This document shows positions 18,725-59,589 of a stretch of DNA of 64,000 nt, in pieces. Positions within the stretch are counted from its first letter, which is position 1, and the number at the start of each line of letters is the position of its first letter. The translations under genes and the position numbers were made by a program. The stretch is from Clostridia bacterium (GTDB taxonomy: Bacteria; Bacillota; Clostridia; Christensenellales; UBA1242): positions 125-64,124 of the forward strand of contig CAAGAO010000018.1 in NCBI GenBank assembly GCA_900767835.1, in the 5' to 3' direction. The notes under the pieces were generated by a model that made no database searches, was not told where the DNA came from, and saw only the letters and a program-made list of their open reading frames with translations.

Positions 18725-18781
18725 AATATATATGTATAAAATTTATCTTCTTGTCAATAATCATTGACGGAGGTAAGAAAT

Positions 18782-19532: not shown

Positions 19533-19760
19533 ATGACTATTGATAAAGTAAAAAAATTAATATCAACTCAACTTAACGTTGCTGAATCAAAAATCACAGA
19601 AGATTCTAGATTAGTAGAAGATTTAGGTGCTGATTCTTTAGACACAATTGAACTTTTAATGGCTTTTGAAGAAGAATTTGGAATTAGTATTCCAGATGAA
19701 GAAGCTATGAATATGAAAACAATTAAAGATATTGTTAATTTAATTGATTCAAAAAATTAA
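19533..19760 (+). CDS. acpP: acyl carrier protein
   Basis: 75 aa with the canonical LGADSLDTIELLMAFEEEFG phosphopantetheine-attachment motif. GGAGG RBS. Confidence 0.9.
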   Translation: MTIDKVKKLISTQLNVAESKITEDSRLVEDLGADSLDTIELLMAFEEEFGISIPDEEAMNMKTIKDIVNLIDSKN

Positions 19761-19798: not shown

Positions 19799-19838
19799 GC
19801 AGGTTTTGGAATATTCCAAAGCCTGCTTTGTTTTTTTT
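19799..19838 (+). terminator. rho-independent terminator after acpP
   Basis: GCAGGTTTTGG/CCAAAGCCTGC 11-bp stem (one GU), 6-nt loop, then TTTGT8. Confidence 0.75.
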
Positions 19839-20043: not shown

Positions 20044-20072
20044 TTGACTTTTTTTGTTTAATAATATATTAT
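20044..20072 (+). promoter_or_regulatory. sigma-A-type promoter candidate for the giant lipoprotein operon
   Basis: TTGACT (20044-20049), 17-nt spacer, TATTAT (20067-20072). The AT-rich context makes false positives likely. Confidence 0.3.
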
Positions 20073-20147
20073 AAATATATTAAAAGAGTTAATTTGTTAT
20101 TTTTGATAAATATTTTGTTTATTAATTACAAAAAATAGCAATGGGAG

Positions 20148-23100
20148 ATGTCTATGAAGCCTATGAAAAAAATTTCTATATTAATTATGTCTATTGCAAT
20201 TCTTTGTGTGGGAGTGCTATTTTCCGCTTGTACACAAAATGGAGAAGCAAGCATAACATTAAGTCAAAATAATGCCACTATATTTCTTGGAGAAACCGAA
20301 AATAATCAGGTTTCTATTTTGGCAACCTTAAAAAATGTCGATGTAAACAAATTAGATTTAGTTTACGACACTTCTTTTGTGACTATCTCTCAAGAAAAAA
20401 ATACCGATGGAACATTTACAATAACTGTAAAAAGTTTGATAGATTATGGAACCAAACCAATTGCAGTTGAGGTTAAAGCATCAAATAAAGCAAGTGCGGT
20501 TTTCTATATTGACATAGTTTTACCATTGCAAAACATAGTCGCTAAAGATAACTTGTATATTGCATATAATGGCGAAAAAACTTCATACAGTTTGATTGAT
20601 TTCATTTCTTTTGAACCAGAAGGTACTGTTCAAAAAGGCGTAGAGTTTACTGTTCAAGAAGAAAGTGAACAATATCACATAGAAAATAATAAACTTGTTG
20701 TTGAAGCAGGTGTTGATGTCGCTCAACTAAGTCAAATAAAAGTAAATGCTGTTTCAACAGTTATCTCCGAAGGTAAAGAACCAGTATCTGCTGAATTAAA
20801 CATAAAACTCTTACCAAACATAAAACTTCTTGCGGATAGCATTTCAGTGTCAGTTGATTACAATGGTGATAAACTTCCACTTCAAGATAAATCTTATGAA
20901 TTAACAATCAAAAAAGAGTTAGACGGCTACAAACTCAGCACTTTTGAAATTGAAGTGGTAATTCCTCAATCTTTAGGAATAGAAGTAGACCTAGATAGTT
21001 CAAGTTTTGGCGGACTTTCAACCAACATTCTAAATTATCTCTCATATTCAAGACGTCACACTTTAGATACAACGAACGCAAGCAATATTAAAGATGTGTA
21101 CACATTCACATTTGAGACAAAAAGTTCGCTTCAAGGCAAGGGTGACTTGCGTATGAAATATTGGTACAAAGATTACAGTAGTGACAATAATCTTTCTGCA
21201 AACTTTATTGCAAAAGTTGAAAATGAGATTGTTGAAAAATTATCATTAACTGCAATTATGCCAATTACCAGCATTGAGGTTAGAACCGATTGCGTACTCA
21301 ACACCGACACTAATATTTACACAATTTACAATAACTACAAAGGTGTTTATGGCGAAGCGTTTACACTAGTTGCTTTGCCAGAAGGAACAGGTCAAAGAAC
21401 TATTGTTTTAGAAAAAACAGAAGATAGCGAATTGCTAGTTTACAATTCAAAAGGTAACTTACTTCCTTTTATTAGATACATCTATGACGAAAATGGAACT
21501 TTGATTGAAACAAAAAATAATCAACAAGAAATAACATCTGGAGAAACAATTTATATTAAAGGTGCGAATAAGAGCACAGAATCTTTAATTTACTTTAGTT
21601 CAATATCAGATAAAGAATCAGCAACTAAAGGTACACTTTCATTCAATGTCTCAAATGGAACATCGGCTTTAGGTTTCGTTGATGATACAGAATCTACCGA
21701 ACTTAAGGAAGAGATAGTTTTAAATGCAGAAATTAATAATTCTACAGTTACATATTTATTAGCACCAAATGCAAAAGTGTCAGATTTTACAAAAGATGAA
21801 AATGTGACAATAGAACCTGTTTTGGGCAAAGATAATTACTTTAAGGTTACATTCAGTGCTTTAAAAATAGGAAAACAAACTTACACAATAAAAACAATAA
21901 ATGGTTACAAAGTTATAGCGACTTTAAATGTTATTAAACCACTTGAAAATGTAGTTTTAAAATTAAAAGATAATTCACAATATCTTGCAGGTATAGGAGA
22001 TTATGCTCAAAAAAATAGTGATAACGATTTAATCAATATCTCTGTTGAAAAAGGTTATTCAATAGCATTAGATTATGTAATAAATCAAAATGCACAAATT
22101 TCAAGCATTAAATATTCATTCTATAACCCACAAAACATAGATGTTTATGGTGACGAAATAGATAAACTTAAAGATGTTTATAATTATAATTACCCAACAC
22201 TATTTGATGAATTAAGTCTAGTTTTAAATAATCAAAACTTGATACAAAATAACATATTAACAGGTATTAATTCAGGCATAAATGTAATAAAAATTGAAAT
22301 TTATGGTCAAAAAGTATTAAATGGTCAATTAATTGATGAAATAAAAGATACAAAATTCCTATTTGTTCAAATATACAATCCAGTTAAACAAATTAACTCA
22401 ACTGCTAAAAATATTACACTAAGAACTGTAGACCAGGTTGCAAGCGAATATGAATCTTTAACAACCAAAACATTAACATTAGATGTAACATCTGAAGGTG
22501 GCGAAAAAGCAACTTACAACAAAATATTTATTGATGGTAGTGCTTATGATATTGTGCTAACAGAATCTGGTAATAGTGAGTTAGTTTGCTCAAAAATAAT
22601 CAATAAAGATGGCATTGATGCAATTGTGGTTACATACAACTTTACAACTGGTAAATTGAACATTAAAGCAAATAAGTATGTAAAATTCACTGAACAACCT
22701 CAAATTATTTTATTTGCTGGAGATTTCGTTGATTTCGAAAACGGTAGACATTTCTATACAGATTCTACCGATAGGCCTATTATTACATATATAATATCAA
22801 TCAATTTGATAGAAACAAAAGTAATTGAAGATATTAGTGTATCAAACCTAGAACTTGATACAAGCAAATCAAATAGTACAACAAAAGTATATAAGACAAT
22901 TTATATTGATACATCTAAAGCAGAGAGTATAACTTATAAACTGTTGACAGAAATCACACCTTTTGATGCTTTTGATAAGGCTTTAAAATATACTTTCATT
23001 GCAAATTCTGGAAGTACTCAAGCAATGATAGATATAGATGATAACGGGCTAATCACAATTTTAGGCGAACAAGGCGGAAGTGGCATTATAACAATTGAGC

Positions 23101-26100
23101 CAAAGAATAATAGAGAAGGAGTGGCTGTTAAAACTGTTAAAATTCCAATTGTTGTTTCAGATGGTAATTCATGGGAAACCGCTTACGAAATAACCAGCCT
23201 AGACCAAATAAAATATGCAAATAAACACTATGTTTTAACCATTCCAACCACATACACACTAACAGAAACATTGTTTGAAAGTTTAGAAGGTGGTTTTAGA
23301 GGTGGCTTGTATGGCAGACGTTTTAATGATGCTGAATCTTCAAAAGCAACAATCAAACTTCAAGGTGTTTCATTATTCAATATTTTAGCAAGCACTGCAG
23401 TTGTGGCAGATTTAGATATTTGCGGTGATGTTTCTGCAACTGAATTTAAAAATGCACAAGGGACAATTGAAAAATTTACAAGTAGGGGCTTTGTTGCAAA
23501 TGTCAATGCTGGCAAAATTGAAAATGTAAAAGTAACCTCATATTTACTAAATGGTGTATATGCTCCTAGTTTATTAACTATTAGTGCTGATGTTACTAAA
23601 GTTGGTGGTATTGCTGGTGAAAACAAAGGAATAATAGAAAACTGTACATTTGCAGGCTCAATCAATGTAAGAAATAATTCAACAATTGTAGCAAATGCAA
23701 TGGCAAATAACACAACAGGCACTTTATCAAACAATAAGGTTATTATAGCAAAATATGATAGTGCAATTGAGTCATTAAGATTGGTCAATGATGGCGAAAA
23801 TTATGTAAATGGTGTTGTAAATGGCACAAACACAACATTTGCCGATATTGATAATAATAAAGTATTTGAAGAAAACTACAAAGATTACGAATTTAATGGA
23901 AATGTTTGGATAGCAAACTACCAAGATGAAATTGGTTTAAATTTAAATCACTCATATGGCGAAGAAGATTCAGTATATGGATTAGTATTCTATTATTTAG
24001 CAAAAGATAGTACAAAACAAGACAATTTGCAATTATTAAACATAATTCCATTTACAAAGTTATTTGGATTAAAAAACACAAACATAACAACAAATAATTT
24101 AAAAGTTTTAGCATTAAATTCAGACAATACATTATGTGATTTTATAAGCATTAACTCACAAGGTATTGCATTAAATGGTGTGGGTCAATTCGTTTTAAGT
24201 GTTTCAAGCGAATATGATTACACAACAACATATAACTTAAATATCTTATCTATGTATCAAGCAACTGACTTTTCTTTAAGTAGTAATGGTGTAAAACTTA
24301 ATAAAAATAGTGGCGAACTTGAAATTATTTATGGTGAAAAATACGAAGTTGTTTCTAAGATTAATAATTTGGTAAACATAGTCAATACAAAAGGACAAAA
24401 AGAGACAATAGAACTTGTCCAAAATGATTTTGATGTATTGTTTACAATGGCTTATGAGGGGATGACTGAGGAGATTAACTCAGAAAACTATATCACAGGT
24501 ACAAAACTTGGAAGTCATACAATAAATATGACATTTGATTGGTATGATAAAACAAATATTAAAGTTAGCCTAGTTAGTGGCTCTGGTGCTCACTTTGACG
24601 CTTTATTAAACAAATTTTTTGACATAACTGATGGCGAGGTTGGAGAGTTTAATGTTAGAAGAAAAAATGGAACATCAGATATTACAACTGACATAAAGGA
24701 AGGTTCAATTGAACCAAAAGATACATTTACATTCTCAGCAACACTTACAACTGATGTGTCAACCGATTTAATAGATGAAAATACCATAGAAGTTTATACC
24801 GAAAATAATATTTCTATAACAGAGCAACAATATTTTGATATAGTTGTTGAAAAAGACACAACAAAAGATAATACATTCAAAATTCAAATAAGTGTAAATA
24901 AAGACAATATTAGAAATGCAGGATATAATTTATTAGATTTTGTTTCAAGAAAATATACAATACTCGTAAGGGCAAAAAATAGTACTGGTATTGATGAAAA
25001 AATATATAATGCCTCTCAAGAGATATATGTTACTTTGCTTCCTCAAACAATATCAAATATAAATACTGTATTATATGGTGTAACGACATCAAATACTACA
25101 GGTGTAAATGTTTCAAATAAAGAAACCCCAACATCAGTATTAATTCCTTCGGGAAGTGGTGGTTTGTTTGTTATTGATATGTTCCCATCTTATGCTAGTT
25201 ACGATTACATAGATGTTGTGGCAACATCAAATACAATCTCAAAATTATCATTTAGATTACAAGAAAGAATTGAAGATGCTGGAGAGTTGACAAATAACTA
25301 TAGAAATACAAACAATGGTTACGAACCTCTTATCGGCAAAAATGGTATTAGACTTTTAAACAACAACAGCAAAGACAATCAAAATATAGGTACATATTAT
25401 TTAAAAGTTTTTGCAAACGCTTCATTTAGTGGCGATACAATCTTTACCATAACTGTAAATGCATATTATAAAGACAATAAATTATCTGCGTCTTCAGTAT
25501 TTACTTTGTTTATGAAAATGCCAGAAGCCCCACAAATTTCATTGAATGGCGAAAGTAAAATATATACTCTTGCAGGACAAACTATTGAAAATATTGAAGT
25601 TTTAGTTTCAAGTGAACAAATAAATCCAACTGCTCAAATTGCATCTAATCTTTCTGGCGAAAGTTTAATTGATGGGAAAAGCACAAGTTTAATACATTGC
25701 AATATGCAAGAAGTTGCGACTAATAACTTGGTAGGATACAAAAAGTATTTAATAACAGTTACTTTTGATGATACTTATGCCGCTAATTTAAGTGTAAATA
25801 GTACTAAATTTAAAATAGTAGTAACTAGTATAAAAATTTCAAATGGTAGCGAAATTCCAGTAACGGCAGAAATGTATGTTTATGTTGTAGACTATAAAGC
25901 ATTAGAAAATGACATTAGAATCTTTAATGCATCTGAAGATGTATTCAAGGTTACTAGTCTAAAATACTTGGAATTAAAACTTGCAGACTTATTGCCAGAG
26001 AATGTAAATGCAACACAAGAATTTATAGATTTCTTTAATGAAAATTACTATTATTCAAATTCAAATACTGAATTTACATTTGGTAGCAACAAAATGTTGG

Positions 26101-29100
26101 TTGATGGCGAAGAGAAAGAATTATCCAAAGCACAAGTTTTAGCATCATATTTGTCTTATGTTAAAGGCAATATTAAAACTCCAGTATTAAAGATTGGTCA
26201 AAATAATGAATTTGAACTCGTTTCAACAGAATATTTATCATTTGATATTCAAGAAGGAAAATTATTAGTTAGAGGTGGTAATTATACTGGCTCAACTAGT
26301 ATGATTTTTGAAATTGAATACAAAATGCCAGATGGTAAAGTGTTCACATATGAATATAGTTTTGAAATTGTAAATAGTTTATATACAACTGAAGATTTAC
26401 CAAAAGAAATTGCGAATGTTGACACTTTCTTAAATATAGAAAATCAAGATGAGTCTTTTGATTATATTTTGACAACAGATTTATATTTATACGACTACAG
26501 CCCTATATCAAATACAAACAAAATCACTTCTTTAGACGGAAATAATCATACTATTCATATTATCAATTTTGTAGAAAGTGATAATATGTCTGACTTTGCT
26601 TTGTTTAAAACAATATCTAGTTCGACAACAATTAAAAATTTAACAGTAAATATTTATCACTTAAGACAAATTACTGTATCAAGCAAAGTTACAACCGCAA
26701 ATATAGCAGGTTTTGCAATTCAAAATGATGGTTCAATCTACAACTGCGAAGTTGTCGCTTTTGATAATGAATCGTTACCAGCAATGTCTAGCACATATGG
26801 AATCAAGGTAGATAAAGATGTAAATGCTCAAGTTGCAGGCTTTGTATTGACAAACAATGGTTCAATCACAAATAGCCGTTTTGGCGGAATAACCAAATTT
26901 GTAACAAAAGTGGTATATTCAACCAATGATGATGGAAAAGTTGTAAATAGCAAAGTAGCAGAACAAACATACTCACAAAAAATGATAACCATTCAAGCAA
27001 GCGGAACAATTTCGGGCTTTGTTGATACAAATAATGGTGTTATTGCAAGTTCATTTGTAAAAAATGTAGACATTCAAAATACATATTATAAATTAGAAAC
27101 AAAAGTTACTGCAGGTTTCGTAAATACAAACAACGGAACAATAGCAATGAGTTATGCTGAAGGTGGCTTTGAAAACAATACAGATGTTAGAGCATTAAAA
27201 GGCGGACTTGAAGGTCTTGGTATAATGACTGGTTTTATATACTTAAATGCTGGCAAAATCACCGATAGTTATAGTAATTTAAGTATAACAAATACAAAAG
27301 AACAAGTAGGCAGACTTGGTGCAGGTTTTGTCTTTGAAAATGCAGAGAGCGGTATTATTGAACGTTGTTATTCAGCATCTAAAGTTTTGAGCAATAATAT
27401 AACTCAAATGAACTTTGCGGGAATTAAAGATTTTGGCGGTTATAATAATGATGGCACAATTAAAACAAGTTATTATTATATTGAAAATTCTACAGATGAA
27501 ATATCAATAGAAAATATACTAGGTACAACAATTAATTCAATAATCAATGTTTCAGATAAAAAAGAATTCTACGGTTTTAGTTTTGTAGATGGCAACAAGG
27601 CAGGAACATGGAATATAAACGATAAGGGTAGAATTGAACTTGTTAGTGCAAACGATATTGCTCATTCAGTAAGGGCAAAAAATGAAAATACAACTGGTGC
27701 AAATACAGGAATAGAATATTACTTTACATATTGTTCTGGTTACGAACTTGGCTCAAACAATAACCCAATAATAATTCGTGACGCAAAAGAATATAATGCG
27801 GTATTCGGTAATTCTGTTTCAACCGATATTCAAGATTGTTACAATCTAAGCACTGCAAAAGTATATGGTTCATATCGTTTAGTTAACGATATTAATATGT
27901 TGGACTTGGTTCCAAAAGAAGAACAAGAGACTGAATATAAAGTAAGTCTAGTTTCTACAAAAATGACATTATCAGGGGAATATAACCATAGTTCTAATAA
28001 GGGCGGTTCAATAAATGGTAATGGCTTAACAATTACAAACTTAGCAATTTCAAACTCAAGCAGTGTAAGCAATAATTATGGTTTATTTAAATCTATAGAA
28101 AATGGCGCAAGCGTATCTAACATTAATATAGAATTAGCAAAGAGTGGTGTTTCAGCTGACCATACGGTATTCGTTGGAACAATAGCGGGCTCATTAGTTG
28201 ATTCATATGCTAACAATATATACATTAAAGGTATATCATCAACAGAGTACACAAAAATAGTTGGTGCAAATGTTACTGGTGGTGTATTTGGTAGAGTTAT
28301 TGGTGATTCTAAAGTGTCAAACTGCAAAGTGGAAAATATTTCAGTTACTTCAACATATTTTGAAAATTATGTTTTTGACTCATCAAATATTGATAAAACA
28401 AATGTATACACAAGACTTGATGAAAATAGTTATTCAACACTTTCAATAGCAGGTGGCGTGTTTGGTGTTGTAGATATGTACACAACATCTCAACAGGACA
28501 ATTCTACAGTAATCAGTGCAGTAGATAGCCAACAAGCAGGTTTATCTAATATATCTGCAACTGGCGGTATGTATATTGAAGGTATGACTGCTGGTGGTAT
28601 TGCTGGTTTTGTTGGCAACTATGTAATAGCGCGTGATTTATCATTAACAATAAATAAAGATGGTGTTAAATCTGGAATTATTGCATATAACTGTTATGCA
28701 GGCGGTATTGTAGGTTTCAATAGAGGCTATTTGTATCAAGTAAAAGCAGAATATGAACATTCTTGGCAAACAGAAATAGAAAGAAATATACAAACATACT
28801 ATCAATCAACTGATGAAGAAAGAAAAAATATTGATCGCGGTAGTTTTGATTTGTTCGAATCTGACCTATACAATCCATATTCAGTAGGTGGCTTAGTTGG
28901 TGTCCAACAATCTGGCAAAATAAGTATTGCATATTCAAAACTTAATGTAATAAACACAAAAGCAAAAATTGTAGGTGGTGTTATTGGTTATACATGTAGG
29001 GCTTTTAAACCTGACGGCACAAAGAAAGAAGATGTCGTTTCATTCACAATGCATGAAACCTATGCTACTGGTGATGTTTACACAGAGGCTAATGAAGCAA

Positions 29101-32100: not shown

Positions 32101-35100
32101 GCACAAGAAATAACGATATTTTAACAAGTAATTTCGTTGTTGCAAATGAGGGTGTAATTTCATATTGCTATGCAACCGGTGTAAACGCAAGTAAAAAAGG
32201 TTATTTATTCATAGCAGATCCTGAAGATGTGGCTCAAAATTTAAACATTGAAAGTGCTGAAGAAGACAAAAAGGCAAGTTATGGAACTATTGAAAATAAC
32301 TGCTACACTATTGTTAAAGCAGATAATGATGATGTTAGTTCTTATGTTCCAAAAGAAGTATTTGTAGAAAGTGATGCTTCTGAGACAGTATTCTCTTCTA
32401 AAGAAAACTCTATTTCAACATTGTATAAATCTATAAATTCAGAAGATGATACAAAATCTGATTTAGAAAAGGCAGATACATTTGGATATTATGATTGTGA
32501 CCCATATTACAACTATAATTATCCAACAATATCAGGTGGTTTATTTAAAAACTTTAAATTCTTAAAACGTAGCACTATGGTTGAATACGATGGTGCCGTA
32601 TATAAAGAAAAAGTTGAAGAAATATATAACAATGAAAAGTCTTATACATATTCATTAGATGATGCTACAACAAGAACAGTATGGGGTGTAAATTACTTTA
32701 GAGTAGAATTATATTGCCAAATCCCAAATCTAACTGTTTTTAAAGATTTAAACTCATCAGATAACGGAACAAATGGTTTAACATATAAATATAGTAAGTT
32801 TGTTGTTATTGCAAATATCAATGTTGGATATAATCTCGATAAAGAGAAAGATGATTCAATAAATACGACATTAATCAATTCTTTAACCCCAAACATCAAA
32901 ACATATGATGAAAATACAGGATACAATGACAATAATATTGCGGAAGTAATAATTGATTTTCAGAATAATACTTTATTAAATTTAAAACTTGGCGTTGGCG
33001 TAAAACTTATTAAAGAAATTAAAGGCAACGACTCAAAAGTTACTATTAAAAATTTGGAATTTAATAATGTTGAACTAAATAGTTCAACTGGTTTGATTGG
33101 TTCGACTGATAAAAATACAATATTAGAAAAAATAAAATTTACAGACGACGCAACTGTTTATATAAGAATGAAAGACAATATATCTAACCTTTCAGATGAA
33201 AAAAGATATAATTATGATTACAAAGATGAAATCACAGGATACTATAGAAATGTTATAGGTGTATTAGTTGGAAGAAATGAAGGATTGATACAAAATTGTG
33301 CATTCTATTCAAAAATCACAACAGATGGACTAAGCTTAGGAAGTTATGCTTTAGGTGGTTTGGTTGGTCATAATGTCGCTAATGCAGATGGAACAGGCGT
33401 TAATAACTGTATATTCAAAGGTAATGTTTATATATCAGAAAATTTTGCAGATAGTAAATTTAAAAACAAAGATTTGCAAGTTATATTTGGTGGTTTGGTG
33501 GCAGTTAACGATGGAACCATTAACAAATCAAAATTAGAAACTTCAAGTATAAGAACGAACTATATTTTAACCCAAGGCGGAACAGTTTATAACAAGAGTG
33601 TATATGATAATGAATTGTCATACGAACAAAGAACAAACGATCCTAAAGTTTCAGACGATCCAAGTTATGTATACAATTCTCCAATTTATGTTATAAGTAG
33701 TAATAAAGCAATTGTTGGTGGTATAGCAGGTATAATGAATACTGGTGTAATATCAAATTGTTCTACATATAAAAACGATAGTGCCAATGATCTCATAATT
33801 CTTGTGGGTGATGAATATAGACAAAAAATCGCTTATGCTGGTGGCATTGTTGGCTTAATTACTACAACTGACGGAAATGTTAGGGATTGTTCAAATCGTG
33901 GTAATGTTACAGCGATGGCAACATGGCTTTTAACCGCAAATAAAGAAGATGAAGCAAACTACAAATTTGATTTGTTAAACATAGCAATTAAATCCGCAGA
34001 CAAAGTAAATGGTTATATTGATAAAGTGTTCTTTGATGATGCATGCGTTGAACCTATCACAAAACCAGATAACTCAATTCCATCTGCTACTTCATTGTAT
34101 GTTTATAGAGAAATGGTTTCTATGGCTTATGCTGGCGGTATTGCAGGCTTTGGTTTAACAAGTGCTAAATCTAACTACACAGAAGAAAATGGCAATGTTC
34201 GTTTGGCAAACTATGGAACTATTAGTGGTGGCTTTAGAGCAATAAAACCTATGGCTAAAATATACAATACTCATTTTGGCTTAGAACCTTTCAAAAAAGC
34301 CAATGCATTATTCCCTGAGTTTGCTGCTGCAACTGTTGTTGCAATGAAACTTATAAGAAATAGTTTGATCGCTATTCCAGATACTATTCCAGAATTGATA
34401 GCATTTGCAGCTAAAATGACTGGATGGCTTGTCGTAAATGGTTTTTATACTTCTGTTGTTAATTCAATTTATGAAAGTGTTTCAAATGTAGCATTAAATG
34501 TAGATGGGTTTATTGGAAGCAGTCCTAATTACTATAAAGGCTATAATTATTTAACAAATAAATATAGTACAAACATCTTTGTTAGAAGTATATTTAATGA
34601 TTCTTCAAGATGGGGTGATGAGGGTAAAAAAATATTAAATGAAAGTTTAGCAATTTATGAAAAAGATGACGGTACTATTTTAGGCTATCTAAAAGAGAAT
34701 GGGTTAGATGATATTAAGGCATTAGCTAAAGGTGAAGGTTTCCTTATTAAAACAATAAAAGCAATTATGGATTATACTCTTGCTGGTGACTTTATTTACA
34801 ATTCTAACATTTTATGGAGTGGATATCTTAATTTGTTCTTACACGATTATGTTGTAGCTACTCTTAATCCCCTTGTTATATTAGGTGCGAAGTTTACTAC
34901 GTTTATCAGAAAAATATTCCCAAATATTAAAGGGTTTGAAATTTATGAGCAAATGGTAAAAATTAAGAATATAAGTTCTAACGATCTTAAATATGTCAAT
35001 AGCGTAAATACAATAAGTGAAACAGTTACAAAGACTCCTAAAAATTCAGAACAAAGCAGAGCAGAGGCAGAATATTTTACTTATACTGCAAAACTAATTA

Positions 35101-38100
35101 GTTATTCGTATGATGGTGTATGTCCAAATTTAAATCAAACTAGCGAAAAGCTGGCTGTTTATTCTTCCGTAAAAAATTTGAATGATAAATTGCCAAGTGC
35201 TGATAATAAAGAAAAAGATATTACAACCACACTTAATACTGCAAACCCAGATAATGCTTTGATAAAATTCAAGTTTGCTGAATTAAATGCAGATGGAAAA
35301 GTTGTAAATCAAACAATAAAAGATAAGTATAATAATACCGAAGAAAAGTTTGCGATTACTAATATTGGTATTACAAATAATAACGAATTAGGGTACTGGG
35401 ATAATGATGGAAAACATAATTGGACATTAGATGATGATAATTGTTATGTCCCAGCATCTAAAGATGAATTATCAATAGATGATAAAGATTTTAAACCTGC
35501 AACTGATGATGATGGCAACGAGGTAATAAATTACACTTTAACTGAAGCAGAGGATTGGGAAAAATTAGTTCGCACAATCAATAGTAATGAAAAATATGAA
35601 AATGTTAATATTATTGTTAATTTAAGTAGTGGACAAACTGAAATCCCAGTAGGTAAAAATACTTTAGATAATTTTAGTGGTTCAATAATATTTAGATCAC
35701 CAAAATACTACTTCTCAAATATCGTCCTTGCAGACAAAGCTTCAGAAACACCAATTGAGAGTTTAGGTTTAATCAAACAAACGCAAGGCGTAACTTTAAA
35801 ATCAATAACTATTAAAGGCTCTGTAAGTTTTTCTGTATCAGATAACGCAAGTGACAATGTTACTGCTGGTATATTGATAGGCAAAGTTGTTCCAAAAGAA
35901 AACAGCAAAAAAACATTATCAGTAGTATCAACAAGCATAATTGCTAGTTCTATTACAATCACTGAAAATTCTTTATCCAAGATAAAATACTTTGGTGGTT
36001 TAATTGGTGATTTAACCTTAGGCACAAAACTTGAAAATGAAGATGAAGATGCTGAAGTTTTATATCAATCAAAAATTTCCGATGTATTCCTTGGAGATAC
36101 AAGTGCTAGTGGAAATGCATTCAATATAAACGAAACTCAAATTAGCATACGTGAAGACCAAGTTAAGTACTTTGGTGGTTTAATTGGAAAAGTTGATACA
36201 ATTGATAGTAGTAATAAGTTAGCAATCAACAAAGTAGAAACTTATGGTAGTGTTAAATTGATTTCTGAATTTAACAATGCTGGTGGTTTAATTGGAATTG
36301 TTAAAGAAAATGTCTCAGTTCAATTTGGTGTTAAATCAAAGAATGTAGATAGCGAAGACAATAATAATATTCAATTAAATATTGGTATTGCATCAAACGC
36401 GACAACAATTGTTGGTGGCTTGATAGGATATGTAGAAAATAATAGCGTTGTTGAAATCATAAAACAAGTCAACATTGGCACAAAAACGGGCATTACAATT
36501 TCAGCAGATATAACAAATGATACAAAAGAAGCTTATGCTGGTGGTTTATTTGGGGCTATGTTTGGCTATATACTTTCAGGCTACGATAAAATTACTATGG
36601 GTAACAAAATCCTTACAACTTTCAGTAGTGTTAGCTATGTATTTGCAGGCTATAATGCAATGGATCTTGAAACACTTATAAATATTCCAATAGAAAGTTA
36701 TGCTTCATTATATGCGGGAGTATCAGAAAATAGCGATTTTGTCACATCAAATAGTTTTGTTGTAAAATATATGTATAATAAGTCAAAAACATATACCAAA
36801 GCACTAACAGGGGCTACTTCTCCAAATTGGAATAGTCTAGATAAAGCTGTTTATATATCTAATACAACTATCAATTTTGAATCTGGTTTAAAGTATGATT
36901 TATATACTACTGAATATGAAAATGGTTATAATTATTTAATAACCAATGATACAACAAAAGCATATTTAGATTCGGCAACATATACTTTTACTCCAGTCAC
37001 GATAAATGATGATGGAGAAGAAGTAAAAGGTACTTCAAAAGTAGTTTCTTTAACGAACAGAACGATAATTGATTCTGAAACCAAATTAGGTTATAAACTT
37101 ACGCCTGTATATTATGAGGGCTTTGAAACATCAAATGCAAACGATGTGAATTCTCGTCATTGGTTGTTAGAAATTTCTTATATAGATAATACAACAACAT
37201 ATACTATACCAACTTCAAATGTGGATATTACATACAAATTTTTGATTAGTTTAATAGGTTCTAATGCAAGATTGGAAGATTCTGGAAGATATAACCTAAT
37301 TGTCAAACAGTTAAATCAATTTACACAAAAAGAAAAACTAATAGGTTATGTAGATATAAGCACAAAATACAATGATACAAAATTTAATAATGATCCGGGT
37401 GAAGTAAATACTTCAACAAGCATTTATTATTCATCTTATGAAGGATCTGAAGTTAACAAAACAATTTTCTCAAGAACATTTAAACTTAATGATTTAACTG
37501 ATGGAGAAAATATGTTGTATAAATTAGAAGAAATATTTAAGTATTCATTAACTAAGAGTGTTCAAAATAAAGAAAAATCCAACACTAAATCAGCTACATC
37601 ATTATTGCAGACAGCATTAACTAATACATCAATTGATTTTATTGTCAATAAAGAAGCGGATAAATATTCTTTTAAAGTTAAAGATAATTTTAAACTTGTT
37701 GTCAAATATGATAGTTCTACAACTGAGATAAACAATAAATTCTCAGAAGAAGATAAAGAAGATAACACCAAGAAAGATGATATGGAAAATGATCCTAACA
37801 AATATATGGATTCAAAAACAGAGGAATCAAAAGATTCAATAACAAAAAAATATAGTAGATATATTCTAAATATTAATGACATCTCATCTGGTGACTTGAC
37901 TTCAGACAAATTGATTAATGTGGGTAATTTTAAGAACTCATATGGCGTTTATATAAATCAAGACATAAATAATGATGCTCCTTTAAAAACTGATGAATAC
38001 TCTACACCAAGTTTATTAAATGATGAAATTTATTTAGCATATTCAAAACCTAAATATAGTTATCAAAATGATGGGGCTCAATATGATGAAATCAAAGTAT

Positions 38101-39050
38101 ATAAATATACAAATGAAGACAAAAACACATCATACTTAATAGTTTCTTGTATGCAAAAACCTGATAATGATAGTTATTCTATGTATATTAAAGAGTATGT
38201 TTATGCATTCGCTAAAGACAATTCATTAGAGTACTACGGCTATATTAGTTATAAACTAACAGGTGCTAATGGGAAATTGGTTGAGGAAATATACAAAACA
38301 TTCTATGAAGATGGCGTCCCAGCCCGTTATGGAAGTTACTTCCCTTCATTTATAGATGGTAGTGGTAATAGTTATGACAATGCTGCTTATGATTTCAATA
38401 ATAAAATTGAACAAACACCAAAAGCAGGGCAAATTATCTTCTATTGCTATACAGCACATCAAAGAGTAGACATTACATCTAATAAAAATGATATGACTTA
38501 TTCTTATAGAATAATAACTGATACAATGATGCAAAAAGTAAATATATCATCAAGTGCCACAGCAGATAATGGCGTTAATATTGTTATAGCAGACAAAGAA
38601 AAAATTAGTAGTTCTTATGGTGATACAACAACAATAAGATTCCAAGGCTCAACAGGTTTAGGTGGCTTATTAAAGGCAGAGAAAAAGGTATTAACTGATT
38701 GCACTCATGTTACAGGTACGGCTCCAGAGGATGTTAAAACTGATGATATAACTGGTACAGTTGTTGAATATTGGACATGGACTACAGCAAATAATAAAGC
38801 AGAAGTTGTTGCTTTGCATACTCAGTATCAAGAATTGCAAGAAGTTGAACAAAAAGATGAAGATGGAAACCTAATATATGATGAATATGGTAATGTAAAA
38901 ACCAAAGAAGAATATGTATTAGTTAATAAGTACTATAGCGTAATTGCAAATAGAACTTTAACGGTTTATGATTTGCCAGAAGAAATCTTCTTCTATGTTT
39001 CATCAGGAAGTTACAATATTGATAAATGTATAGCAAAAGCAATCGTATAA
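20148..39050 (+). CDS. giant surface lipoprotein (6300 aa): Ig-like repeat arrays plus at least seven GLUG-motif beta-helix-like modules
   Basis: An 18,903-nt ORF with no stop in AT-rich DNA. GGGAG RBS (starts at 20148, 20154 or 20163 are all possible). Lipoprotein signal peptide ILIMSIAILCVGVLFSAC (Cys codon 20229-20231). Many rungs of type GGIAGENKGIIENCTFAGSINV, GGLVGHNV..NNCIFKGNV and AGGIVGFNRGYLYQV. No LPXTG, SLH or HExxH motif seen. Confidence 0.85.
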   Translation: MSMKPMKKISILIMSIAILCVGVLFSACTQNGEASITLSQNNATIFLGETENNQVSILATLKNVDVNKLDLVYDTSFVTISQEKNTDGTFTITVKSLIDYGTKPIAVEVKASNKASAVFYIDIVLPLQNIVAKDNLYIAYNGEKTSYSLIDFISFEPEGTVQKGVEFTVQEESEQYHIENNKLVVEAGVDVAQLSQIKVNAVSTVISEGKEPVSAELNIKLLPNIKLLADSISVSVDYNGDKLPLQDKSYELTIKKELDGYKLSTFEIEVVIPQSLGIEVDLDSSSFGGLSTNILNYLSYSRRHTLDTTNASNIKDVYTFTFETKSSLQGKGDLRMKYWYKDYSSDNNLSANFIAKVENEIVEKLSLTAIMPITSIEVRTDCVLNTDTNIYTIYNNYKGVYGEAFTLVALPEGTGQRTIVLEKTEDSELLVYNSKGNLLPFIRYIYDENGTLIETKNNQQEITSGETIYIKGANKSTESLIYFSSISDKESATKGTLSFNVSNGTSALGFVDDTESTELKEEIVLNAEINNSTVTYLLAPNAKVSDFTKDENVTIEPVLGKDNYFKVTFSALKIGKQTYTIKTINGYKVIATLNVIKPLENVVLKLKDNSQYLAGIGDYAQKNSDNDLINISVEKGYSIALDYVINQNAQISSIKYSFYNPQNIDVYGDEIDKLKDVYNYNYPTLFDELSLVLNNQNLIQNNILTGINSGINVIKIEIYGQKVLNGQLIDEIKDTKFLFVQIYNPVKQINSTAKNITLRTVDQVASEYESLTTKTLTLDVTSEGGEKATYNKIFIDGSAYDIVLTESGNSELVCSKIINKDGIDAIVVTYNFTTGKLNIKANKYVKFTEQPQIILFAGDFVDFENGRHFYTDSTDRPIITYIISINLIETKVIEDISVSNLELDTSKSNSTTKVYKTIYIDTSKAESITYKLLTEITPFDAFDKALKYTFIANSGSTQAMIDIDDNGLITILGEQGGSGIITIEPKNNREGVAVKTVKIPIVVSDGNSWETAYEITSLDQIKYANKHYVLTIPTTYTLTETLFESLEGGFRGGLYGRRFNDAESSKATIKLQGVSLFNILASTAVVADLDICGDVSATEFKNAQGTIEKFTSRGFVANVNAGKIENVKVTSYLLNGVYAPSLLTISADVTKVGGIAGENKGIIENCTFAGSINVRNNSTIVANAMANNTTGTLSNNKVIIAKYDSAIESLRLVNDGENYVNGVVNGTNTTFADIDNNKVFEENYKDYEFNGNVWIANYQDEIGLNLNHSYGEEDSVYGLVFYYLAKDSTKQDNLQLLNIIPFTKLFGLKNTNITTNNLKVLALNSDNTLCDFISINSQGIALNGVGQFVLSVSSEYDYTTTYNLNILSMYQATDFSLSSNGVKLNKNSGELEIIYGEKYEVVSKINNLVNIVNTKGQKETIELVQNDFDVLFTMAYEGMTEEINSENYITGTKLGSHTINMTFDWYDKTNIKVSLVSGSGAHFDALLNKFFDITDGEVGEFNVRRKNGTSDITTDIKEGSIEPKDTFTFSATLTTDVSTDLIDENTIEVYTENNISITEQQYFDIVVEKDTTKDNTFKIQISVNKDNIRNAGYNLLDFVSRKYTILVRAKNSTGIDEKIYNASQEIYVTLLPQTISNINTVLYGVTTSNTTGVNVSNKETPTSVLIPSGSGGLFVIDMFPSYASYDYIDVVATSNTISKLSFRLQERIEDAGELTNNYRNTNNGYEPLIGKNGIRLLNNNSKDNQNIGTYYLKVFANASFSGDTIFTITVNAYYKDNKLSASSVFTLFMKMPEAPQISLNGESKIYTLAGQTIENIEVLVSSEQINPTAQIASNLSGESLIDGKSTSLIHCNMQEVATNNLVGYKKYLITVTFDDTYAANLSVNSTKFKIVVTSIKISNGSEIPVTAEMYVYVVDYKALENDIRIFNASEDVFKVTSLKYLELKLADLLPENVNATQEFIDFFNENYYYSNSNTEFTFGSNKMLVDGEEKELSKAQVLASYLSYVKGNIKTPVLKIGQNNEFELVSTEYLSFDIQEGKLLVRGGNYTGSTSMIFEIEYKMPDGKVFTYEYSFEIVNSLYTTEDLPKEIANVDTFLNIENQDESFDYILTTDLYLYDYSPISNTNKITSLDGNNHTIHIINFVESDNMSDFALFKTISSSTTIKNLTVNIYHLRQITVSSKVTTANIAGFAIQNDGSIYNCEVVAFDNESLPAMSSTYGIKVDKDVNAQVAGFVLTNNGSITNSRFGGITKFVTKVVYSTNDDGKVVNSKVAEQTYSQKMITIQASGTISGFVDTNNGVIASSFVKNVDIQNTYYKLETKVTAGFVNTNNGTIAMSYAEGGFENNTDVRALKGGLEGLGIMTGFIYLNAGKITDSYSNLSITNTKEQVGRLGAGFVFENAESGIIERCYSASKVLSNNITQMNFAGIKDFGGYNNDGTIKTSYYYIENSTDEISIENILGTTINSIINVSDKKEFYGFSFVDGNKAGTWNINDKGRIELVSANDIAHSVRAKNENTTGANTGIEYYFTYCSGYELGSNNNPIIIRDAKEYNAVFGNSVSTDIQDCYNLSTAKVYGSYRLVNDINMLDLVPKEEQETEYKVSLVSTKMTLSGEYNHSSNKGGSINGNGLTITNLAISNSSSVSNNYGLFKSIENGASVSNINIELAKSGVSADHTVFVGTIAGSLVDSYANNIYIKGISSTEYTKIVGANVTGGVFGRVIGDSKVSNCKVENISVTSTYFENYVFDSSNIDKTNVYTRLDENSYSTLSIAGGVFGVVDMYTTSQQDNSTVISAVDSQQAGLSNISATGGMYIEGMTAGGIAGFVGNYVIARDLSLTINKDGVKSGIIAYNCYAGGIVGFNRGYLYQVKAEYEHSWQTEIERNIQTYYQSTDEERKNIDRGSFDLFESDLYNPYSVGGLVGVQQSGKISIAYSKLNVINTKAKIVGGVIGYTCRAFKPDGTKKEDVVSFTMHETYATGDVYTEANEANIGGVIGKNYDESINLTKVNALNYWGIDSYNLFKTKTNNISISAIANYTDAGIESDSSTHVYSISGIKFGNDEKVSFVKNDSGIEVMCSYYDYDGVLSDNGAQIDLMFSKKEWYLENNWTRDLTELFPHIVYVSPRNQYTISSIEEFYKFTLYGNDPNVTFVVIDYDKADPSKGDDDLLIPCNDVQVTYGLLRAKIVGATAKNGFRNLNVPLFSEMNGNEVSTLKFLNCTAPLTQRANNEQFSYLNYSNCEFTVKTNKNIGGIAQEAINKCEFSNITFTNCSINAGNAINAGMLFGSHSQNTVSDTAIKISNVSILSDSSSKIMVAGTTTISDSASEYNYGILFGRAGDVNIDNIQINDKMSINLNSPREVQGSTKEASITANIGLLAGSVNYLDINLQNTTLTAGKTGELSVNCATGDTISEFDKILLNLNVGGIVGKCTDTLMLSVTKTNEGDEAGTYVNVSYAPTINIKNTKNVNSQYVGTACGVANEIKASKNGVYIFGKTEDEKGKTVYNALEYSLAEKTGTSNPVINNIGGIAGTAHLISSTEDKDTIQTNPGIIAYYGDMKSAMPTNADINYLNIGGIVGIYTPLISGSNIISNVIFDGTISFADGYFNNDNTETIKNLNVRAGGVIGYVNGSGTIIKNTIAAGEIILTDRIGNSLKITNGMNIYIAGLVGFNNGVTDLGTSADNGNEGISVITTIFSLTGANGVDSIAHNSGNGYFNLNNKVKYCSSLNLVVSSLQKGDSKENHNGYLEVNKPDGVEEFLINTEYGQLNEDGMTVWNVANNTVKGSKLDPYYIDEENGIPEKGVGDTVKNNEYYFTKAKSGKNGDKTGADIITYASSYTRKLYIGVKGNKKLPNQISLENTILFSQGASLLSTITPINEIDANSAVTGLVVKLYINESEGSEATNANDYFNLAGLANVNKGIIYTCSVQESLTGFKEYDNSTRFYGYFYSELDYEKLKTSPAFTNQKLPKGIAGFVANNKGYIFGSNANVEMGTRNNDILTSNFVVANEGVISYCYATGVNASKKGYLFIADPEDVAQNLNIESAEEDKKASYGTIENNCYTIVKADNDDVSSYVPKEVFVESDASETVFSSKENSISTLYKSINSEDDTKSDLEKADTFGYYDCDPYYNYNYPTISGGLFKNFKFLKRSTMVEYDGAVYKEKVEEIYNNEKSYTYSLDDATTRTVWGVNYFRVELYCQIPNLTVFKDLNSSDNGTNGLTYKYSKFVVIANINVGYNLDKEKDDSINTTLINSLTPNIKTYDENTGYNDNNIAEVIIDFQNNTLLNLKLGVGVKLIKEIKGNDSKVTIKNLEFNNVELNSSTGLIGSTDKNTILEKIKFTDDATVYIRMKDNISNLSDEKRYNYDYKDEITGYYRNVIGVLVGRNEGLIQNCAFYSKITTDGLSLGSYALGGLVGHNVANADGTGVNNCIFKGNVYISENFADSKFKNKDLQVIFGGLVAVNDGTINKSKLETSSIRTNYILTQGGTVYNKSVYDNELSYEQRTNDPKVSDDPSYVYNSPIYVISSNKAIVGGIAGIMNTGVISNCSTYKNDSANDLIILVGDEYRQKIAYAGGIVGLITTTDGNVRDCSNRGNVTAMATWLLTANKEDEANYKFDLLNIAIKSADKVNGYIDKVFFDDACVEPITKPDNSIPSATSLYVYREMVSMAYAGGIAGFGLTSAKSNYTEENGNVRLANYGTISGGFRAIKPMAKIYNTHFGLEPFKKANALFPEFAAATVVAMKLIRNSLIAIPDTIPELIAFAAKMTGWLVVNGFYTSVVNSIYESVSNVALNVDGFIGSSPNYYKGYNYLTNKYSTNIFVRSIFNDSSRWGDEGKKILNESLAIYEKDDGTILGYLKENGLDDIKALAKGEGFLIKTIKAIMDYTLAGDFIYNSNILWSGYLNLFLHDYVVATLNPLVILGAKFTTFIRKIFPNIKGFEIYEQMVKIKNISSNDLKYVNSVNTISETVTKTPKNSEQSRAEAEYFTYTAKLISYSYDGVCPNLNQTSEKLAVYSSVKNLNDKLPSADNKEKDITTTLNTANPDNALIKFKFAELNADGKVVNQTIKDKYNNTEEKFAITNIGITNNNELGYWDNDGKHNWTLDDDNCYVPASKDELSIDDKDFKPATDDDGNEVINYTLTEAEDWEKLVRTINSNEKYENVNIIVNLSSGQTEIPVGKNTLDNFSGSIIFRSPKYYFSNIVLADKASETPIESLGLIKQTQGVTLKSITIKGSVSFSVSDNASDNVTAGILIGKVVPKENSKKTLSVVSTSIIASSITITENSLSKIKYFGGLIGDLTLGTKLENEDEDAEVLYQSKISDVFLGDTSASGNAFNINETQISIREDQVKYFGGLIGKVDTIDSSNKLAINKVETYGSVKLISEFNNAGGLIGIVKENVSVQFGVKSKNVDSEDNNNIQLNIGIASNATTIVGGLIGYVENNSVVEIIKQVNIGTKTGITISADITNDTKEAYAGGLFGAMFGYILSGYDKITMGNKILTTFSSVSYVFAGYNAMDLETLINIPIESYASLYAGVSENSDFVTSNSFVVKYMYNKSKTYTKALTGATSPNWNSLDKAVYISNTTINFESGLKYDLYTTEYENGYNYLITNDTTKAYLDSATYTFTPVTINDDGEEVKGTSKVVSLTNRTIIDSETKLGYKLTPVYYEGFETSNANDVNSRHWLLEISYIDNTTTYTIPTSNVDITYKFLISLIGSNARLEDSGRYNLIVKQLNQFTQKEKLIGYVDISTKYNDTKFNNDPGEVNTSTSIYYSSYEGSEVNKTIFSRTFKLNDLTDGENMLYKLEEIFKYSLTKSVQNKEKSNTKSATSLLQTALTNTSIDFIVNKEADKYSFKVKDNFKLVVKYDSSTTEINNKFSEEDKEDNTKKDDMENDPNKYMDSKTEESKDSITKKYSRYILNINDISSGDLTSDKLINVGNFKNSYGVYINQDINNDAPLKTDEYSTPSLLNDEIYLAYSKPKYSYQNDGAQYDEIKVYKYTNEDKNTSYLIVSCMQKPDNDSYSMYIKEYVYAFAKDNSLEYYGYISYKLTGANGKLVEEIYKTFYEDGVPARYGSYFPSFIDGSGNSYDNAAYDFNNKIEQTPKAGQIIFYCYTAHQRVDITSNKNDMTYSYRIITDTMMQKVNISSSATADNGVNIVIADKEKISSSYGDTTTIRFQGSTGLGGLLKAEKKVLTDCTHVTGTAPEDVKTDDITGTVVEYWTWTTANNKAEVVALHTQYQELQEVEQKDEDGNLIYDEYGNVKTKEEYVLVNKYYSVIANRTLTVYDLPEEIFFYVSSGSYNIDKCIAKAIV

Positions 39051-49143: not shown

Positions 49144-49190
49144 AAAAAGCGAGGAGAATTTGTGTGTGGGCACAAATTCTCCTCGCTTTT
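49144..49190 (+). terminator. strong rho-independent terminator closing the giant-gene operon
   Basis: Perfect 16-bp stem GCGAGGAGAATTTGTG/CACAAATTCTCCTCGC (49149-49164/49171-49186), 6-nt loop, T4. An A5 run on the 5' side allows bidirectional function. Confidence 0.8.
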
Positions 49191-58499: not shown

Positions 58500-58502
58500 G
58501 AT

Positions 58503-58628: not shown

Positions 58629-58739
58629 AGCCAAACTACACAAGCCAAACAATGTATAGTCAAAAACATATTAACAAATCAAAAATAAAACAACAGAATT
58701 TACCAAAATTTATATTCTTTTTAGTAAAAGGAGCAATTT

Positions 58740-59462: not shown

Positions 59463-59589
59463 TTAAGTATCTTACTCAATTATAGTTGCTTGAATTTTGT
59501 AAGTATTATTTTATAATTTTATAAACAAAAAAATAAAAAAATGAATAAAAAAATTTTACTTGTAAAACATATACTTCAAAGGGGAATTT

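Follow-up and report, generated by a model that had tools for sequence, protein, structure and literature searches.

INTRODUCTION

Giant surface proteins are the main class of bacterial proteins longer than 5,000 amino acids (aa) after the non-ribosomal peptide synthetases and polyketide synthases (NRPS/PKS) (PMC11573180); more than 41,000 proteins above that length, mostly eukaryotic, have been catalogued (PMC11573180), and predicted bacterial proteins reach 85,804 aa (bioRxiv 10.1101/2023.11.21.568195). Apilactobacillus kunkeei makes Giant1-5, extracellular proteins of 3,000-8,000 aa that are encoded in tandem, contain a beta-solenoid and have been interpreted as adhesins (PMC12863079), and the beta-solenoids of these Giants and of the serine-rich repeat proteins (SRRPs) are, in the summary given there, held to bind glycoproteins and polysaccharides. 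The type V adhesins FHA/TpsA, Fap2 and the chlamydial Pmps have beta-helical passengers, with GGA[ILV]/FxxN rungs in the Pmps (PMC11166332, PMC12397386), and the beta-helix of the IgA1 protease binds the IgA1 Fab (PMC7695701). Here we analyse a stretch of 64,000 nucleotides (nt) from a Clostridia bacterium of the Christensenellales (contig CAAGAO010000018.1 of assembly GCA_900767835.1; the whole stretch is called the window below), in which one uninterrupted open reading frame (ORF), giant 1 (g1), encodes a predicted lipoprotein and is followed by a second giant gene, g2. We propose, with a probability that we put at roughly 0.55, that g1 is a lipid-anchored, long adhesive surface fibre of an uncultured, walled, low-GC gut bacterium of the Clostridia, made together with its paralog g2. 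Giant bacterial surface proteins and GLUG-type beta-helices are already known, and since far larger bacterial proteins have been described, the size of g1 alone is unremarkable; an earlier note on this DNA, which ranked g1 among the largest bacterial proteins, overstated that point. The g1 family itself is new.

RESULTS

g1 is a real and intact gene

The coordinates of all features are collected in Table 1. Given how A (.39), T (.31), G (.17) and C (.13) are represented locally, stop codons should occur once in 11.4 codons, and the chance of 6,300 consecutive stop-free codons is about 1e-250; the single frame of 18,903 nt was borne out at exactly the position first assigned to it. Over the same stretch the remaining five frames hold 283-852 stops each and their longest stop-free run is 146 codons, which agrees with the earlier statement that antisense ORFs inside g1 are under 145 aa. 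The GC fractions of g1 at the three codon positions (.385/.341/.182) are like those of the adjoining housekeeping genes. The N-terminus MSMKPMKKISILIMSIAILCVGVLFSAC was confirmed in the translation, and the motifs, cap-like segments and acidic linker that had been quoted from g1 were all found in it.

An exhaustive search with the last 801 aa against 1.84 billion representative proteins returned an independent database copy, P0011, of 6,305 aa and 99% identical to g1, which is recorded on 6 other contigs from two sources, the longest being 121 kb. The two proteins differ at 75 alignment positions, all of them substitutions or in-frame insertions or deletions. These differences cluster at aa 3149-3173 (29592-29666) and aa 4909-4921 (34872-34910), and a 6-aa insertion distinguishes the two proteins, again in frame, at aa 5804 (about 37557). 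Lying on a near-identical background, the patches look like recombination or hypervariable spots. Between 19 and 50 kb we found no long direct, inverted or tandem DNA repeats and none like those of diversity-generating retroelements; the sole recurring DNA motif was of the GGTGGTATTGCTGGT type, about 30 nt long and with 67-78% identity between copies. Collapsed repeats are therefore no concern. We concluded from these results that g1 is a real, intact gene and no assembly artefact.

The Shine-Dalgarno sequence upstream of g1 is spaced to suit the ATG at 20154 (Met3) better than that at 20148, and P0011 begins at the residue corresponding to Met3. Spacing and database start together favour ATG 20154 as the true start of g1. 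The lipobox Cys, which the earlier note had numbered 28, is present, and its position in the precursor would therefore probably be residue 26.

g1 carries a lipoprotein signal

The signal sequence of g1 consists of an MKPMKK n-region, the h-region ISILIMSIAILCVGV and the lipobox LFSA-C. A charged n-region and a hydrophobic h-region thus precede the pattern [LVI..][ASTVI..][GAS]C within about 35 residues, as in lipoproteins, and the signal peptide proposed at first reading was upheld; it is also the sole segment of g1 of transmembrane (TM) grade, with a Kyte-Doolittle hydropathy (KD) of 2.65. g2 begins in the same manner, with a K-rich n-region, a hydrophobic h-region and the lipobox IFSG-C. 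Across the family a regular expression detected the lipobox in 31 of 34 homologous giants, the other three being readable by eye, and in 8/8 visible downstream ORFs of relatives. Given what is established about substrates of signal peptidase II, g1 is predicted to be lipidated.

Motif searches agreed with the earlier reading that g1 has neither a sortase signal nor a metalloprotease site: there was no LPXTG-like motif near its C-terminus, which ends ..NIDKCIAKAIV, and no HExxH anywhere in g1 or g2, and Pfam gave no M26 match. Pfam scans of g1 in pieces and motif searches likewise detected no catalytic motif in g1, again as first reported, and no peptidase, sortase or toxin motif. Serine-rich repeat tracts were absent from g1 (Ser 8.8%), and scans against family libraries revealed no SLH, CWB2, LysM, SH3b or other wall-binding module.

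Seven blocks match one another and include beta-helical cores

The earlier note described at least seven GLUG-type beta-helix modules and expected a plain hmmscan to return GLUG and Big families. Rungs of the type GG[ILV][AV]G do cluster near the block positions that it listed. The expected matches did not appear when the full length was scanned, and neither did they in long pieces: searches of Pfam, NCBIfam and PDB sequences with g1 pieces of 2,300-4,900 aa gave no match, nor did Pfam scans of pieces of 3,200-3,300 aa. When g1 was scanned in 700-aa pieces, GLUG (PF07581) reached 29.1 bits (E 1.1e-6) over three stretches in aa 4355-5054, above the Pfam gathering score of 20.5 bits, and scored 17, 13.6, 13.1 and 9.5 bits in four other pieces, all below it. 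GLUG therefore rose above threshold once, in short pieces only, and no piece gave an Ig-like or Big match. The null long scans probably arose, at least partly, because the speed and bias filters of HMMER lose matches in long, biased sequences. With local profiles, for which alone this effect was demonstrated and not with Pfam itself, hmmsearch recovered 4 of 32 true family members under default filters and 32 of 32 with --max. As the default filters had dropped 28 of 32 true matches, we rejected the null long-piece scans as evidence of absence.

In an all-against-all hhalign comparison of 13 g1 regions, with profiles built from g1 and three orthologs, the blocks matched only each other, with probabilities of 95% for B2-B5, 91% for B1-B6, 87% for B4-B7 and 76% for both B3-B4 and B1-B2; the N-terminal, middle, H and C regions matched none of the 13. 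From this network of profile matches we take the seven blocks to be homologous modules.

The fold was modelled with AlphaFold2 for aa 2041-3120, which covers B2 and B3, from a 12-sequence alignment. The model had a mean predicted local distance difference test score (pLDDT) of 63.9, and its cores, at 70-93, consisted of repeated triplets of short strands, with small strand-and-helix caps ahead of them. In the sequence, B2 and B3 are each opened by a cap (..SLDGNNHTI.. / GSNNNPIIIRDAKEYNAVFG ..INGNGLTI..). The best Foldseek matches of the model in the PDB were the IgA1 proteases of S. pneumoniae and G. haemolysans (probability 0.99-1.0, best E 1.2e-2), followed by the beta-solenoid of the L. 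reuteri SRRP and then by pectate-lyase-fold enzymes and tailspikes. All top matches were beta-helix proteins, and no PDB match had E <= 1e-3. Against predicted viral structures there were five matches at E <= 1e-3, down to 4e-11, among them a 'putative immunoglobulin A1 protease' from a phage, and the weaker matches just short of that limit included proteins labelled 'right handed beta helix'. The GLUG-type beta-helix reading is thus well supported for three of the seven proposed modules, B2, B3 and B6, and for the other four, B1, B4, B5 and B7, it is supported by their profile homology to these three and would extend to them on that ground.

The double core is conserved and the distal half diverges

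With the filters off, only B2 + B3 (aa 2085-3110) was found in all of about 30 giants, at E 1e-10 to 1e-76; regions N1, N2, B1, M1 and M2 linked weakly to few relatives, and H, B7 and C were found in just the closest ones. Over 30 species, 110 of the 1,026 core columns are at least 90% conserved, including 37 G, 19 N, 10 I, 8 F and 7 S, together with 3 D, 3 R, 1 K, 1 E and no His. The conserved residues recur as GF[VA]..N.G.I and GG..G rungs and in the caps LDGNN and G...NP..I....E; they are signatures of structure and form no catalytic constellation.

Sequence conservation declines from the proximal to the distal end. The ortholog nearest to g1, L002, is about 72% identical to it over aa 1-3300, which is close to the value for the flanking genes (56-79%), and 35-60% identical beyond about aa 3300, the minimum being 23-37% in aa 4700-5000. 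The B4-B6 stretch holds the strain-variable patch at aa 3149-3173. At the far end, the last 801 aa had three relatives among the 1.84 billion representatives: the 99% copy, a 385-aa fragment (P0012) that is 32% identical and aligns right up to the C-terminus of g1, and a 115-aa fragment. Pfam matched nothing in aa 4690-6300, toxin families included, a homolog search with aa 4690-5889 found no protein, and a metagenome scan with the C-terminal domain found no locus; the C-terminal end of g1 is therefore an orphan, in line with the first description. Complete giants of other lineages end in C-termini that show no relation to each other.

An Ig-like N-terminal region is suspected

The first 1000 aa or so had been read as arrays of Ig-like, Big_2-like repeats. 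No scan gave a Big_2 or other Ig-family match in g1, tiled hhalign comparison detected no internal repeats above 30% probability in aa 1-2100, and self-comparison of g1 by BLASTP detected no repeats. In two relatives, L006 and L008, the first domain scored just below threshold for Big_2 (PF02368; 20.6 and 22.5 bits versus a cut-off of 22.8) and also came near Big_1, Big_3_5 and Invasin_D3, and the first domain of relatives is profile-homologous to the N-terminus of g1 (E 1e-5 to 1e-9). With no Ig match in g1 and no internal repeats in aa 1-2100, the arrays are therefore unproven, and we regard them as only weakly supported.

Hydrophobic helices lie deep in the giants

The H region of g1 contains two hydrophobic helices at about aa 4722-4790 that hold K, R and E and fall below the TM threshold. 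We rejected mid-protein TM helices in g1, where KD is at most 1.63 and where the sister strain has D and R substituted into the hydrophobic stretch at aa 4902-4920. A single-sequence AlphaFold run of aa 4690-5889 predicted helices for H at a pLDDT of 30.8, which is unreliable. At the same place in the ortholog L005 (aa 4794-4850) there are two TM-grade segments, with KD 1.95 and 1.87.

A distant clade of giants has a well-conserved late module at about aa 5,750-6,570 with two TM-grade hydrophobic helices. It runs from ..SGS[ILM]FEVNG.. through helix 1 (KD up to 2.55), often a K/R-rich loop, and helix 2 to the motifs G[YF]L..SY.R and YSS.RP.DYY, and was seen in L011, L013, L019-L021, L026, L028-L030, L032, L033, L042 (4865-5923) and L043 (3699-4268). 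Pfam has no match for this module. Homology between it and the H region of g1 was not detectable (hhalign probability 0.2%), and the resemblance between the two therefore stays an analogy. The late hairpin may be a second membrane anchor, a target-membrane element or a pair of buried core helices. Of all the features described here, this deep hydrophobic hairpin is the likeliest to conceal something new.

A family of giants in uncultured gut Clostridia

Relatives were sought with the most conserved part of g1 in one genome per species of GTDB. The scan found 40 species-level homologous loci, all in metagenome-assembled genomes of uncultured gut Clostridia, Christensenella or 'Ca. Onthoplasma' from the guts of humans, rabbits, sheep and chickens, and in nearly all of them the matching frame was kept open over about 5,900-6,570 aa. 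Seven relatives are complete, with 5,897-6,475 aa; most other frames run past the end of the fetched DNA. On two further contigs the giants terminate about 740-925 aa beyond a late module, which implies totals near 6,700-7,000 aa. The closest relatives, L002, L003 and L005, have the same upstream genes as g1: a minus-strand deacetylase, an Fe-ADH-like gene, a 154-aa ORF and an M23 peptidase.

Protein database searches with shorter queries gave 5 + 5 fragment matches, every one 'hypothetical', and the relative P0004 bears a precomputed PF07581 match. No named family covers these giants: they have no Pfam or NCBIfam family model, none of the relatives was a homolog with a defined function, all database matches being labelled 'hypothetical protein', and a literature search on GLUG giants and Christensenellales surface proteins found no description of them.

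Some giants are interrupted. In L010 one in-frame stop (10673-10675) separates open stretches of 3,557+ and 2,708 aa in the same frame. The giant of L001 is split into three ORFs (67-6834, 6858-11027 and 10886-18460), and L006, near-identical to L001, keeps one intact frame of 6,111 aa. L025 is also interrupted. These interruptions may stem from sequencing error, pseudogenisation or natural truncation.

g2, the transcription unit and neighbouring genes

The earlier note did not mention g2, which starts 205 bp past g1. BLASTP aligned aa 1053-3096 of g1 with aa 1206-3253 of g2 (21.7% identity, E 1e-56), and the N-termini align too; by this alignment g2 is a half-size paralog, the counterpart of the proximal half of g1 (aa 1-3100). 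Wherever the downstream DNA of relatives is visible, a second lipobox ORF starts within a few dozen bases of the giant. A terminator 3' of the gene for an acyl carrier protein (ACP) marks the 5' boundary of the giant-gene unit, and another follows g2. Since a consensus scan found no convincing terminator between g1 and g2 and terminators lie on both flanks, the two genes look like one transcription unit. The promoter-like sequence upstream of g1 is weak evidence, because such sites are no commoner in the region than in shuffled sequence.

Genes for DnaD/DnaI-like, M1 peptidase, Mfd, PrsA/SurA-like, LPG-synthase-like, ACP, Mur ligase and HtrA proteins and a spoIIGA-sigE-sigG cluster surround the giants; they are the chromosomal housekeeping genes of a walled, sporulation-competent member of the Bacillota. 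No accessory secretion, sortase or glycosylation genes were found near g1, and no accessory Sec genes in the window. The M23 peptidase gene also lies upstream of the giant in near and more remote relatives, L002, L003, L005, L015 and L018 (50-79% identity); no other neighbour is as persistent, and it may be functionally linked to the cell wall. About 3 kb past g2 a 508-aa protein has two DUF285 matches (PF03382, labelled 'Mycoplasma protein of unknown function'; E 7.5e-48) and is another putative surface-repeat protein. Farther downstream a spoIIGA-like peptidase U4 gene and two sigma-70-family genes stand in the classic spoIIGA-sigE-sigG order, an arrangement that suggests that the lineage keeps sporulation genes.

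Table 1. Positions of g1, its regions and neighbouring features in the window
Feature	Position	Strand	Residues (aa)	Remarks
M23 peptidase gene	18764..19333	+		N-terminal membrane segment; upstream of g1
Acyl-carrier-protein (ACP-like) gene	19533..19760			Upstream of g1
Intrinsic terminator	19799..19826	+		12-bp stem, 6 GC pairs, T-run; 0.0 expected in shuffles
Promoter-like TTGACT-17-TATTAT	20044..20072	+		Upstream of g1; consensus match only
Shine-Dalgarno GGGAG	20143..20147	+		Suits ATG 20154
Giant 1 (g1)	20148..39050	+	1-6300	6300-aa ORF; one terminal stop codon, included
Signal peptide with lipobox ..VLFSA-C	20148..20231	+		Cys, predicted lipid-attachment site
N-terminal region	20232..23147	+	29-1000	Ig-like fold suspected
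Beta-helix block B1	23148..23927	+	1001-1260	Preceded by cap-like GNSWETAYEITSLDQIKY; GLUG 17 bits, sub-threshold
Middle region M	23928..26399	+	1261-2084	No family matches; weak profile links to few relatives
Core, blocks B2 and B3	26400..29477	+	2085-2530, 2531-3110	Found in ~30/30 giants
Blocks B4, B5 and B6	29478..34247	+	3111-3760, 3761-4110, 4111-4700	In hhalign network
H region	34248..35522	+	4701-5125	Helix-rich, moderately hydrophobic insert; least conserved (23-37% to L002)
Block B7	35523..36647	+	5126-5500	GLUG 13-14 bits, sub-threshold; hhalign B4-B7 87%
C region	36648..37742	+	5501-5865	No Pfam match; just in closest relatives
Acidic linker EEDKEDNTKKDDMENDPNKYMDSKTEESKD	37743..37841	+	5866-5898	
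C-terminal domain	37842..39047	+	5899-6300	Presumed distal tip; orphan
Giant 2 (g2)	39256..49026	+		3256-aa paralogous lipoprotein; ribosome-binding site GGAGAG upstream
Strong intrinsic terminator	49145..49190	+		20-bp stem and T-run, 3' of g2
Gene for 508-aa protein	52279..53805	+		Two DUF285 matches
spoIIGA-like gene, two sigma-70-family genes	57678..60360	+		Sporulation gene order
558-aa ORF	60632..62308	+		No Pfam match at E <= 1e-3

DISCUSSION

We favour an adhesive fibre because the frame is intact, its copy stands on 6 contigs, 40 giant loci exist and the lipobox is kept family-wide; because a GLUG match, mutually matching blocks and AlphaFold cores like the beta-helices of IgA1 protease, SRRP and viral proteins point to a beta-helix; and because the core invariants are of the rung type (G/N/I/F), no peptidase, sortase or toxin motif is present, and the match to L002 falls from about 72% in the proximal part to 35-60% in the distal part. 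According to this proposal g1 would be exported by the Sec pathway and processed at the lipobox Cys by Lgt and signal peptidase II. Its N-terminus would remain lipid-anchored in the cytoplasmic membrane and the remainder would reach through and past the wall as a mostly non-repetitive chain, made up of a proximal part that is possibly Ig-like, then seven right-handed beta-helix modules of the GLUG type that have diverged from one another, and at the end a tip specific to the lineage. Fully extended, such a chain would measure about 100-200 nm, on the assumption of 0.48 nm per rung of about 24 aa and about 4 nm per sandwich domain of about 95 aa. By analogy, the flat faces of the beta-helices, those of B2-B3 above all, may be ligand-binding platforms for glycans or proteins. 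The ligand of B2-B3 would then be something shared by all hosts or by the bacteria themselves, and specificity for strain or species, or antigenic variation, could come from the tip and from the distal half, which evolves fast.

Several points weigh against the fibre. Lipidation is predicted from a sequence pattern, the evidence on fold is limited to aa 2041-3120, with a mean pLDDT of 64 and no PDB match at E <= 1e-3, and the Ig-like stalk is suspected and unproven. A fibre accounts neither for the hydrophobic H region nor for how a chain of 6,300 aa would pass the wall. The conservation of B2-B3 across human, chicken, sheep and rabbit hosts speaks against a host-specific ligand, and it fits a structural or self-directed role equally well.

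Such a role is central to the alternative that survives best, an envelope scaffold or surface coat, in which the two giants would not be adhesins but would serve as an S-layer substitute, a wall-spanning tether or a spacer, with B2-B3 attached to wall polymers of the cell itself or to a partner protein. Giant size and a central core conserved in 40 species from very different hosts are what such a scaffold would show, and the core chromosomal site lies by wall-related genes, namely those for the upstream M23 peptidase, which L015 and L018 likewise have, for a polysaccharide deacetylase and for a Mur ligase; the TM-grade hairpins deep in some relatives could, moreover, attach the protein to the membrane a second time. 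We nevertheless consider a scaffold unlikely, as the family scans found no wall-binding module and no sign of the self-assembly domains known from S-layers, and a fast-evolving, strain-variable distal half is more typical of exposed interaction surfaces.

The hairpins also suggest a bolder arrangement, to which we allow an outside chance. The late hairpin is of TM grade with K/R-rich loops in at least 12 relatives and degenerate in g1, and the lipid anchor together with the deep hairpin might fix 4,700-6,400 aa to the membrane at both ends as a loop. In such a doubly tethered envelope machine, which would be specific to one clade of gut bacteria of the Christensenellales type, B2-B3 would form the middle of the loop, and the second anchor would be followed by a variable C-terminal head; with its obligatory second giant, it might constitute an undescribed surface organelle, a wall-spanning scaffold or a contact-dependent device.

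Similarly improbable, in our judgment, is a tethered array of glycan-degrading domains, pectate-lyase-fold lyases or hydrolases resembling tailspikes and acting on mucin, dietary fibre or the capsules of other bacteria. Fucoidan lyase, GH55, pectate lyases, alginate epimerase, capsule depolymerases and tailspikes do appear among the Foldseek matches, and other giant proteins have been connected with the breakdown of carbohydrates (bioRxiv 10.1101/2023.11.21.568195), but the enzyme matches are weak (E 0.02-3, probability <= 0.44) and reflect a shared fold, no CAZy-type Pfam family matches any part of g1, and the core invariants, mostly G, N, I, F and S, include no His and few charged residues and therefore contain no obvious conserved acid/base cluster.

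Harder still to sustain is contact-dependent delivery or antagonism, in which a stalk would present variable distal cargo and the H hairpin would enter a target membrane (compare the polymorphic and the large clostridial toxins). Although the proximal-conserved, distal-variable gradient, the lineage-specific C-termini and the hydrophobic helix pairs deep in many family members would fit such a device, aa 4690-6300 contain no known toxin domain and no pre-toxin motif, and no small immunity-like gene lies downstream, where g2 comes next and then a terminator. Divergence is gradual and lacks the sharp cassette boundary looked for in a polymorphic toxin. The helices of g1, moreover, hold K, R and E and are sub-TM, with one stretch turned to D/R in the sister strain, and the K/R-rich loops between the helices of relatives suit the producer's own membrane by the positive-inside rule. 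The artefact reading, which the earlier note had wished to exclude and in which mis-assembled or non-coding DNA would owe its open frame to chance or to repeats that collapsed, can draw on the metagenome-type source of the assembly and on the interruptions in L001 (three ORFs) and L010 (one in-frame stop), but is already effectively refuted by the chance of about 1e-250, the lack of long direct or tandem repeats able to collapse, the independent assembly of the same protein on 6 contigs and 30-75% protein-level conservation over 40 species with the frame open. The probability that remains we assign to functions outside these readings.

What is new in the family is an N-terminal lipobox on a protein of 6,000-7,000 aa encoded by non-repetitive DNA, a conserved double-helix core surrounded by several beta-helix modules that have diverged, and an obligatory downstream paralog, with conservation in at least 40 gut species. 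Christensenellales-type bacteria are widespread, mostly uncultured gut residents whose interactions with host, food particles and other microbes are largely obscure, and the family, whose gene pair takes up about 29 kb and stays unbroken in dozens of species, looks like a costly hallmark of the lineage. B2-B3 defines a conserved core that is open to expression and ligand testing, and the variable distal half could serve as a strain marker. There is also a lesson in method: default HMMER filters and word-based pre-filters silently lose domains and homologs in very long, biased proteins, and giants of about 6,000 aa rich in N, S, T and I are therefore probably under-annotated in general.

Among known systems, the best PDB fold matches of the B2-B3 model are the M26 IgA1 proteases (ZmpA/IgA1P; PDB 6xjb, 7uvl and 7uvk), at E of about 1e-2 and 11-14% identity. 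As g1 is predicted to be, they are large surface proteins of Gram-positive bacteria with GLUG and a right-handed beta-helix, which in IgA1P is a binding platform and which, in the N-terminal domain of these enzymes, carries the Pfam GLUG motif PF07581. In contrast to them, g1 lacks HExxH, an M26 catalytic domain, G5 and LPXTG, would be anchored through its lipobox and has seven proposed beta-helix modules instead of one. The binding region of the Limosilactobacillus reuteri SRRP (PDB 5nxk and 5ny0; fold-match ranks 5-10, probability 0.6-0.85) likewise belongs to a gut Bacillota protein with a beta-solenoid, in this case an adhesin; unlike it, g1 lacks both serine-rich repeats and LPXTG, and its neighbourhood contains no SecA2/SecY2 locus.

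The A. kunkeei Giants share with g1 and g2 the arrangement in consecutive genes for giant surface proteins that take up a noticeable share of a small Bacillota genome and, with g1, an SRRP-like beta-solenoid, which in g1 is predicted, the lack of an adjacent dedicated secretion system, strain diversification and an adhesive role deduced for the protein. Their build differs. Rods of alpha-helical repeats make up most of Giant1-3, arrays of beta-sheets most of Giant4 and one long helix most of Giant5, and the Giants have a single solenoid at the N-terminus and a wall anchor resembling SH3b at the C-terminus, whereas g1 has an N-terminal lipobox, a non-repetitive chain and seven proposed beta-helices; no sequence relationship turned up, no direct comparison having been made.

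The type V adhesins use another envelope and another secretion route and are held by a C-terminal barrel, whereas g1 lacks a beta-barrel translocator and a TPS domain and is anchored by a predicted N-terminal lipid. They nevertheless share with g1 long beta-helices, predicted in g1, built from short Gly-rich and Asn rung motifs (GG[ILV][AV]G..N.G.I in g1), and by analogy the type V adhesin fibres are what g1 most plausibly works like.

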